Source: Escherichia coli (GTDB lineage: Bacteria > Pseudomonadota > Gammaproteobacteria > Enterobacterales > Enterobacteriaceae). Taken from it: a stretch of DNA of 64,000 nt. Where the stretch lies: NCBI RefSeq assembly GCF_003334335.1, contig NZ_QOWQ01000009.1; one strand, 5' to 3'. The notes beneath the pieces are model-generated. The model made no database searches, had not been told where the DNA came from, and saw only the letters and a list, made by a program, of their open reading frames with translations. Positions within the stretch are counted from its first letter, which is position 1, and every line of letters begins with the position of its first letter. The position numbers were made by a program, and so were the translations under genes. Shown here in pieces: positions 33,873 through 36,225 of this stretch.

Positions 33873-34418
33873 ATGAGTGCCAATGAAAACAACCTGATTT
33901 GGATCGATCTTGAGATGACCGGTCTGGATCCCGAGCGCGATCGCATTATTGAGATTGCCACGCTGGTGACCGATGCCAACCTGAATATTCTGGCAGAAGG
34001 GCCGACCATTGCAGTACACCAGTCTGATGAACAGCTGGCGCTGATGGATGACTGGAACGTGCGCACCCATACCGCCAGCGGGCTGGTAGAGCGCGTGAAA
34101 GCGAGCACGATGGGCGATCGGGAAGCTGAACTGGCAACGCTCGAATTTTTAAAACAGTGGGTGCCTGCGGGAAAATCGCCGATTTGCGGTAACAGCATCG
34201 GTCAGGACCGTCGTTTCCTGTTTAAATACATGCCGGAGCTGGAAGCCTACTTCCACTACCGTTATCTCGATGTCAGCACCCTGAAAGAGCTGGCGCGCCG
34301 CTGGAAGCCGGAAATTCTGGATGGTTTTACCAAGCAGGGGACGCATCAGGCGATGGATGATATCCGTGAATCGGTGGCGGAGCTGGCTTACTACCGCGAG
34401 CATTTTATCAAGCTGTAA
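33873..34418 (+). CDS. orn: Oligoribonuclease
   Basis: 181 aa from [23 protein letters not shown]...; start at the internal Met. Confidence 0.95.
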
Positions 34419-34543
34419 AATTTTTCCTGGTCACGTAAGCGCCGGAATCCACTTGCGGCGGCGTGATTTTGACGCTAAATTGAACGTCTTGCTGATAATT
34501 TCAGCACTTGAGATAAAAACGCAAAAAAAACTTTTTTGGGGGG

Positions 34544-34571
34544 TTGCAGAGGGAAAGATTTCTCGTATAAT
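34544..34571 (+). promoter_or_regulatory. Promoter of the tRNA-Gly array
   Basis: TTGCAG, 16-bp spacer, TATAAT, followed by a GC-rich discriminator and preceded by an A/T tract. Confidence 0.65.
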
Positions 34572-34628
34572 GCGCCTCCCGTAACGACGCAGAAATGCGA
34601 AAATTACGAAAGCAAAATTAAGTAGTAC

Positions 34629-34704
<76 letters not shown>

Positions 34705-34740
34705 AAATTTGAAAAGTGCTGCAAAGCACAGACCACCCAA

Positions 34741-34816
<76 letters not shown>

Positions 34817-34829
34817 AATTCTTCTCTCA

Positions 34830-35095
34830 ATAAAATATCCACAGCGACGCGATGCGTTATTGCTGGTTTTTGTTGTCTCTGACAAACTCTTGTAAACAGA
34901 GTTATCCACAGCCTCAGGCTGTAATCTTAATTTCAAAGAAACTTCGCACGGTGAATAGTATTTTTTTAACCTATTGATAGATAAGTTAAAAATTAAGATT
35001 CCGTTTTGTCGAGTCGATCACTTGACGATTTTATTCGTCTTGAATTGCAATGCGTTTTTATTTTTATTCACAAGCTGTGGATGAATCAGGCGTCA
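34830..35095. promoter_or_regulatory. datA: DnaA-box cluster consistent with the datA DnaA-titration locus
   Basis: DnaA-box matches at 34835-34843 (ATATCCACA), 34902-34910 (TTATCCACA, perfect), 35064-35072 (TTATTCACA) and an inverted TCATCCACA at 35076-35084; datA maps next to the gly tRNA genes in K-12. Confidence 0.6.
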
Positions 35096-36223
35096 CGCGG
35101 TAACCCTTTTTCAATCACCCGAACCAGACGCTGTTTTTTCGGCAATTGCACTTCGACTATGCACGCATTTCGTCTCTCTATTTGCTGCGCAATCGCCCAC
35201 GCTATGTGCTCATCGAGAAGTGGGTGCTCACCTTTACGACTTTCCAGCGCTGTCAAAATCGTTTCATCCCAAGGGGCATTGCCTAATGCTACGGCGATAT
35301 TACGCAGCCAACGCAGGTGACCAATACGACGAATCGCCGATCCTTCCGTGACTTTTAAAAACTTCTCTTCGCTCCAGGCGAATAACTCAATGAGTTCCGG
35401 TGCGTGTAGCGGCTTACGCGGGCTGAAATCCTCTTCTGTGGTGAGTTGTGAATAGCGATTCCACGGGCAGATAAGCTGGCAGTCATCGCAACCGTAAATA
35501 CGGTTTCCCATTAACGGTCGCAACTCTTCCGGGATCGCCCCTTCAAGTTCGATGGTGAGATAAGAGATACAGCGGCGAGCATCGACGGTATATGGCTCGA
35601 CGATGGCACCGGTCGGGCAAATCGTCATACAGGCCACGCATTTGCCGCATCCTTCCTCGACTGGTTGATCCACGGGCAGCGGAATATCGACCAGCAATTC
35701 GCCTAAAAAGAAGAACGAACCGGCCTCGCGATTGAGGATAAGTGAGTGCTTACCTGTCCAGCCGAGCCCAGCTTTTTCAGCTAACGGGCGCTCGAGAATA
35801 GGCGCAGAATCGACAAACGGTCTAAAATTCAGCGAAACACAATGTTGCTGAATCATCTCGCCCAGCTTTTTGAGTCGGTTGCGCAGAAGTTTGTGATAGT
35901 CACGGCCCAGCGCATAACGGCTAACATAGCCGAGTTTGGGGTTTTTCAGCGTGCTGGCAAATGCGGCGTTAGCAGGAAGGTAATTCATCCGCACGCTGAT
36001 CACGCGCAGCGTACCGGGCAATAACTCATGAGGGCGAGCGCGCAGCATACCGTGACGTGCCATCCAGTCCATTTCGCCGTGGTATTGTTTGTCCAGCCAT
36101 GCTTGCAGTTTGGGCTCGGACTCGCTGAGATCGGTATCGGTAATACCTACCTGCTGAAAGCCCAGTTCCAGCCCCCACTGTTTAATTTTTTGCGCTAACT
36201 GATTGAGATCGAGGGGCTCTGAC

Positions 36224-36225
<2 letters not shown>
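35086..36225 (-). CDS. queG: Epoxyqueuosine reductase QueG
   Basis: 379 aa from MSEPLDLNQLAQKIKQWGLELGF... with 4Fe-4S Cys motifs; start at the internal Met. Confidence 0.93.

Follow-up and report, generated by a model that had tools for sequence, protein, structure and literature searches.

Downstream of the two tRNA-Gly genes of an E. coli contig (NZ_QOWQ01000009.1, assembly GCF_003334335.1) there is a 266-bp region, at positions 34830-35095, in which DnaA-box-like sequences crowd together. Is this region datA, the chromosomal DnaA-inactivating locus, and if so, which of its sites would be responsible for its action? Throughout this report, "the window" refers to the whole stretch of 64,000 nucleotides (64 kb) that was analysed, position 1 being its first letter.

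Three non-coding loci, datA, DARS1 and DARS2, govern the ATP/ADP state of DnaA and so help hold E. coli to one replication round per cell cycle. By the accepted mechanism, datA stimulates the hydrolysis of DnaA-ATP in an IHF-dependent manner (DDAH), direct titration of DnaA playing a lesser part (PMC5835720). The distance between datA and oriC is conserved in relative terms, and datA lies on the same replichore as DARS1 (PMC4585315). Its physiological weight is modest, as its deletion leaves the cells viable (PMC4585315); the dispensability of the extrinsic DnaA regulators is the subject of PMC11331064.

Results

When the window was aligned with K-12 MG1655, the stretch from 34817 to 35160 proved 100% identical to the MG1655 sequence between glyY and queG, the identity beginning where the last tRNA-Gly gene ends and continuing into queG. 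The gene order, rsgA-orn-tRNA-Gly-[datA]-queG-nnr, is also that of MG1655, with the oligoribonuclease gene (orn) upstream of the tRNA-Gly genes and queG, encoding epoxyqueuosine reductase, forming the right-hand flank (35086-36225, minus strand; NCBIfam TIGR00276, 510 bits, E = 1.7e-153). The last codons of queG overlap nothing essential in datA. Minimal datA has been placed in the glyY-queG intergenic region (PMC10950094; PMC5742627), so that the window is identical to MG1655 at the very location given in the literature. An earlier note, made from the sequence alone, had proposed datA on the grounds that the cluster lies between the gly tRNAs and queG, and both the 100% identity to MG1655 and the published location bear this out. 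We conclude that the region is almost certainly datA, its function being assigned by way of the studied sequence of K-12, to which it is identical.

The earlier note had described the element as a known one that gene-centric annotation would not display, and it was right on both counts: this is E. coli datA, identical to that of MG1655, and both the MG1655 RefSeq annotation and that of a 100%-identical genome show nothing but a 17-codon open reading frame here. This frame (yjeV, or "hypothetical protein"; 35050-35103, plus strand) overlaps boxes 3 and 4 as well as the 3' end of queG, and it is the only annotated feature that touches datA. Its conservation may be owed to the underlying DNA sites rather than to a peptide. 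A functional non-coding element that is left blank by the RefSeq annotation can thus be picked up from sequence. The locus itself is already known, and what is present here is an ordinary copy, base for base the same as that of the laboratory strain; nothing new is learned about datA itself from finding it in this genome.

To anchor the names of the boxes, the published mutagenesis primers (PMC10950094) were mapped onto the window. A search for sites with at most one mismatch to TTATCCACA returned exactly the four boxes that had been noticed at first within about 250 bp, spread over 34835-35084, and the perfect match and the inverted pair around AGC were both found as described, the former being TTATCCACA at 34902-34910 (plus strand) and the latter TTATTCACA-AGC-TGTGGATGA at 35064-35084. 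The perfect box corresponds to the high-affinity, essential datA box 2, because the primers subDnaAbox2_L and subDnaAbox2_R, whose flanks match at 21/21 and 24/24 bases, replace exactly 34902-34910. The one-mismatch site ATATCCACA at 34835-34843 (plus strand) was identified as box 1 by means of deletion primers: those for the delta-TglyV-X-Y deletion flank 34834-34856, and TglyV-X-Y overlaps datA box 1, its deletion removing that box as well (PMC10950094). Box 1 is dispensable for DDAH.

Box 7, which has low affinity, lies beside box 2 and is essential for DDAH (PMC5835720), was absent from the first list of boxes. Most likely, it is TTGTAAACA at 34890-34898 (plus strand), which carries two misfits to TTWTNCACA and shares the orientation of box 2, which it precedes by three nucleotides (GAG). 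Three observations support this position well: TTGTAAACA is the only plus-strand 9-mer with two or fewer misfits to TTWTNCACA beside box 2; the stretch that begins with it and ends with box 3 (34890-35072) measures 183 bp, which is the length published for minimal datA (PMC5742627); and the position is conserved in relatives, as described below.

On the other side of the region, box 3 (TTATTCACA, 35064-35072, plus strand), which is of high affinity and essential, fits TTWTNCACA and is oriented like boxes 7 and 2; the essential datA boxes all point one way (PMC5742627). Box 4 (TCATCCACA, 35076-35084, minus strand) follows in inverted orientation three nucleotides after box 3, and both were recovered by the one-mismatch search. 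Box 4 has been found to have a stimulatory effect in vitro and to be non-essential in vivo (PMC5742627; PMC10950094). A further one-mismatch box, TTATCCTCA, is present inside queG at 35733-35741 (minus strand), and may be the box historically numbered 5 in the original 1-kb datA fragment.

The search for an IHF site between the boxes, which had been suggested as a check, was successful. The IHF binding site (IBS), which is essential, is TATCAATAGGTTA at 34967-34979 (minus strand); it is preceded by an A/T tract, lies between the perfect box and the inverted pair, and agrees letter for letter with the MG1655 datA IHF site (PMC4585315, supplementary figure S11). It is one of only four perfect matches to WATCAANNNNTTR in the 64-kb window. 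Primer ChdatAsubIBS matches the window at 64 of its 69 bases, the five changes falling at 34974-34975 and 34977-34979, that is, inside the IHF core. There is thus a single IHF site between boxes 2 and 3, with gaps of 56 nt from box 2 to the IBS and of 84 nt from the IBS to box 3, the same as in MG1655. The box 2-IBS-box 3 spacing, which has been published as functionally important, is therefore kept. Both the absence of the conserved spacing or IHF site and a published location elsewhere had been named in the earlier note as observations that would speak against datA; what was found is the reverse, with the location matching and the IHF site and conserved spacing present.

The interval between the IBS and box 3 contains the only GATC (Dam) site of the region (35016-35019), located within an inverted repeat with a 9-bp stem (35006-35028); the sequence around it, TTGATCACTTG, is moderately conserved across Enterobacterales. 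Just upstream of box 3, a T-rich run (35055-35063) is 80-90% conserved among the 67 enterobacterial sequences listed below. A TTGA at 35041-35044, in the same interval, is conserved in these sequences as well. Neither the inverted repeat with its GATC, nor the TTGA, nor the T-rich run is a named datA element in the cited datA literature.

Every one of 5426 complete E. coli genomes contains a single copy of the 266-bp region, which is at least 95% identical in all but three of them. To look beyond the species, one genome per species was scanned with a pattern consisting of box 2, a gap of 46-66 nt, an IHF consensus, a gap of 74-94 nt and a consensus box. At least 120 loci matched, and among the matches listed, 67 adjoin a queG homologue. 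The genera named here are those of queG-linked loci with listed titles: Escherichia, Enterobacter, Cedecea, Buttiauxella, Dryocola, Pantoea, Erwinia and Serratia, and further Rahnella, Rouxiella, Hafnia, Edwardsiella, Photorhabdus, Xenorhabdus, Providencia and Morganella. In these 67 listed loci the distance from box 2 to the IBS is 55-58 nt and that from the IBS to box 3 is 82-86 nt, both ranges being narrower than the 46-66 and 74-94 nt permitted by the search. As the gaps are confined in this way, the spacing that is experimentally important is conserved far beyond E. coli, and the conserved spacing of which the earlier note had spoken is real.

Boxes 7, 1 and 4 were not imposed by the scan pattern, and their positions could be followed independently in the same 67 listed sequences. 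At the exact position of box 7, a 9-mer with two or fewer misfits is present in 59 of the 67 (as compared to 3.6% of random 9-mers), and it is followed by GAG or GAC in the relatives. In 50 of the 67, a plus-strand box with at most one misfit, corresponding to box 1, precedes box 2 by 56-59 nt. The inverted box 4, with two or fewer misfits, is found at its position in 30 of the 67 and is absent in the rest, its carriers being mostly Enterobacteriaceae and Erwiniaceae; such a distribution would fit its non-essential role. Thus, the contrast between the conserved elements (boxes 7 and 1 and both spacers) and the lineage-restricted box 4 matches the published distinction between essential and stimulatory parts.

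Upstream of datA, ARAGORN identified two tRNA-Gly(GCC) genes, at 34629-34704 and 34741-34816 (plus strand). Their counterpart in K-12 is the glyV-X-Y operon, which has three copies (glyV, glyX, glyY) instead of two. According to the alignment, one tRNA-plus-spacer unit is missing relative to MG1655, the rest of the neighbourhood being identical, and the tRNA promoter is consequently about 111 nt nearer to the IHF site than in K-12. In 626 of the 5426 genomes, a single place covers at least 80% of the orn-queG query, roughly as a two-copy array would give, a count that is approximate because pieces from three-copy genomes were sometimes joined; about one tenth of the complete E. coli genomes therefore appear to share the two-copy array. 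Transcription from the tRNA-Gly operon promoter reads through into datA (PMC10950094), and the two-copy allele could alter this read-through and hence the timing of IHF binding, as compared to K-12.

Two hairpins can be formed by the plus-strand transcript. The first is the terminator/attenuator of the tRNA-Gly operon, TglyV-X-Y (34828-34875, plus strand), which overlaps box 1 and is followed by GTTTTTGTTG; an RNA fold of 34817-34880 gave -14.3 kcal/mol, with z = -2.8. The second is a short G+C-rich hairpin, ACAGCC-TCA-GGCTGT (34908-34922, plus strand), that was detected by a terminator scan and by folding. It is terminator-like, with a 5' arm that shares bases with the end of box 2, but the T tract following it is weak. 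Boxes 1 and 2 both end in CACAGC, which in each case supplies the 5' arm of a G+C-rich hairpin in the plus-strand transcript. With this motif shared between the end of the box and the arm of the hairpin, DnaA binding and the RNA hairpin would compete or cooperate. Box 2 contributes to attenuating read-through (PMC10950094), and the overlap of box and hairpin may be related to this effect.

Discussion

This work yielded sequence identity, site positions, spacing and conservation; DnaA and IHF binding, ATP hydrolysis and cell-cycle timing are taken from the literature on the identical K-12 sequence. On this basis, ATP-DnaA would bind to the high-affinity boxes 2 and 3 and spread cooperatively onto the low-affinity box 7, with box 4 helping. 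After initiation, IHF would bind to the single IBS between boxes 2 and 3 and bend the DNA sharply, bringing the box 7/2 and box 3 DnaA sub-complexes together so that they could interact head to tail. ADP-DnaA would then fall off datA, which would render the action catalytic and lower the initiation potential after each round. Under the timing model proposed for datA (PMC10950094), IHF occupancy would be timed partly by read-through from the tRNA-Gly promoter, which would keep IHF binding low before initiation; the read-through would itself be damped by the operon terminator (overlapping box 1) and by DnaA at box 2, and be blocked by bound IHF. The boxes would also titrate some DnaA directly. 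In cells deleted for datA, the fraction of bound DnaA and the number of origins both increase (PMC12371093).

The earlier note called datA a "DnaA-titration locus". This is its historical name and some direct titration does occur, but DDAH is now regarded as its main function (PMC5835720). The original model of datA went further, in that the locus would be a passive sink for DnaA and nothing else, having no catalytic effect on the nucleotide state of the protein. High-affinity boxes are indeed present, the locus was named for titration, and plasmid-borne point mutants of box 2 or the IBS reduce titration without abolishing it, indicating that direct titration is real (PMC5835720). However, point mutations in the IBS, box 2 or box 7 that abolish DDAH reproduce the phenotype of the datA deletion, and DDAH largely accounts for the apparently strong titration (PMC5835720). 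Moreover, a sink has no need for a precisely spaced IHF site, yet the spacing is held within 3-4 nt across the listed Enterobacterales loci. The sink-only model has already been largely refuted in the literature, and we consider it highly improbable for the locus described here.

Another explanation is that the locus mainly serves transcriptional control, either as a roadblock or attenuator of the tRNA-Gly operon or by regulating yjeV or queG, with DnaA inactivation being incidental. The overlap of box 1 with the operon terminator hairpin and of box 2 with a second hairpin is in line with such a role, and IHF bound to the IBS, like DnaA bound to box 2, does interrupt read-through transcription (PMC10950094). 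However, in the published model it is transcription that regulates the binding of IHF to datA, the reverse not being its purpose, and removal of the terminator has a small effect on replication (PMC10950094). In addition, queG is convergent in orientation, and a scan of 34380-35250 found no sigma-70-like promoter, at thresholds that miss even the tRNA-Gly promoter. The latter can be recognized by eye, with a perfect TATAAT at 34566-34571 and TTGCAG 16 nt upstream; as it too falls below the thresholds, the scan says little about the putative PyjeV. Taken together, a primarily transcriptional function has next to no probability in our estimation, and inactivation of DnaA by way of DDAH is retained as the function of the locus.

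Sites with at most one mismatch to TTATCCACA are common, there being 25 in the 64-kb window as compared to 12.0 +/- 3.8 in shuffled sequences, and the possibility was therefore considered that DnaA-box-like 9-mers had come together by chance in an A+T-rich spacer between genes. Other 266-bp spans of the window contain at most two sites each, and among 500 dinucleotide-preserving shuffles the maximum per span was one site in 285, two in 210 and three in 5, and never four. With the background density of the window itself as the rate, a Poisson estimate comes to about 2e-6 for a single span and about 5e-4 for the window as a whole. Chance was rejected outright on account of these shuffles (0/500 reaching four sites in 266 bp), the presence of the sites at conserved positions throughout the 5426 E. 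coli genomes, and the conserved positions and spacing in the 67 listed loci of other genera of Enterobacterales.

An origin-like element was rejected as well: the region is without an unwinding element and is identical to a locus known as a non-origin.

The closest known system is datA of MG1655 itself (94.7 min, with glyV-X-Y on one side and queG on the other, acting through DDAH), with which the locus shares boxes 1, 7, 2, 3 and 4, the IHF site and the spacing; only the upstream context differs, with two copies of tRNA-Gly(GCC) here and three in MG1655. Like datA, E. coli oriC combines high- and low-affinity boxes with one IHF site, and bending by IHF promotes head-to-tail oligomers of ATP-DnaA (PMC5742627). 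However, the boxes of datA have no adjoining duplex-unwinding element, the outcome being ATP hydrolysis at datA and unwinding at oriC, and IHF binds to datA after initiation but to oriC before it (PMC10950094). DARS2 resembles datA in that it is a non-coding cluster of DnaA boxes, has a timed IHF site and alters the nucleotide state of DnaA (PMC5742627). It differs in that it works in the opposite direction (release of ADP and reactivation), also needs Fis, has its core boxes I-III in another arrangement, and is located elsewhere on the chromosome. Clusters of DnaA boxes in Bacillus subtilis and Streptomyces coelicolor repress untimely initiation and are cited as analogues of datA, but they are not homologous to it in sequence or location, and the papers that cite them (PMC10950094; PMC5742627) show no IHF-dependent hydrolysis for them.

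Among the listed scan loci, 12 from Betaproteobacteria (Sutterellaceae and Pelistega; by name Sutterella, Parasutterella, an uncultured Burkholderiaceae and Pelistega) have a datA-like architecture at another location (L061, at 2690-2900, and L016, L022, L023, L027, L045, L053, L064, L068, L070, L077 and L003). In the alignment, their layout begins with TTGTCCCCA or TTATCCACA, three nucleotides and TTATCCACA, followed after 59 nt by TAACnnnTTGATT; 86 nt including a hairpin then lead to TTATCCACA-AAG-TTATCCACA and a GATC. The gaps are exactly 59 and 86 nt in the 11 listed loci other than that of Pelistega, a likeness to the datA spacing that is partly imposed by the search pattern. In all 12 listed loci the cluster adjoins a hemE homologue and lies downstream of it, and priA is on the other side in all nine whose sequence extends that far. 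The GC skew at the cluster is +0.04 to +0.15 on both sides (+0.08 to +0.15 where the flank is at least 2 kb); since it keeps its sign across the site, the cluster is not an origin. A literature search on DnaA boxes at hemE-priA yielded a single paper, on genome annotation and unrelated to the subject.

Judging from its sequence layout, the hemE-priA cluster may be: a datA-like (inactivating) element; a DARS-like (reactivating) element; or a priA promoter controlled by DnaA and IHF. As the layout recurs at this site, which is not an origin, IHF-dependent hydrolysis might operate outside Enterobacterales. The datA core could then be a portable module, in which a low-affinity box is followed after 3 nt by a perfect box, after about 57 nt more by an IHF site and after about 85 nt more by a pair of boxes, and which would promote IHF-dependent hydrolysis of DnaA-ATP at a non-homologous locus as well. 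This generalization is tentative, and we regard it as rather unlikely.

Several other matches that are not linked to queG (L054, L097, L121, L074 and others) have 7-24 boxes nearby. In three of those from other phyla (L097 at 5870-6041, L121 at 195-350 and L054 at 2937-3107), 14-24 consensus boxes fall within about 770 bp. Such box-rich matches in other phyla are probably replication origins in which the boxes co-occur by chance with an IHF-like motif.
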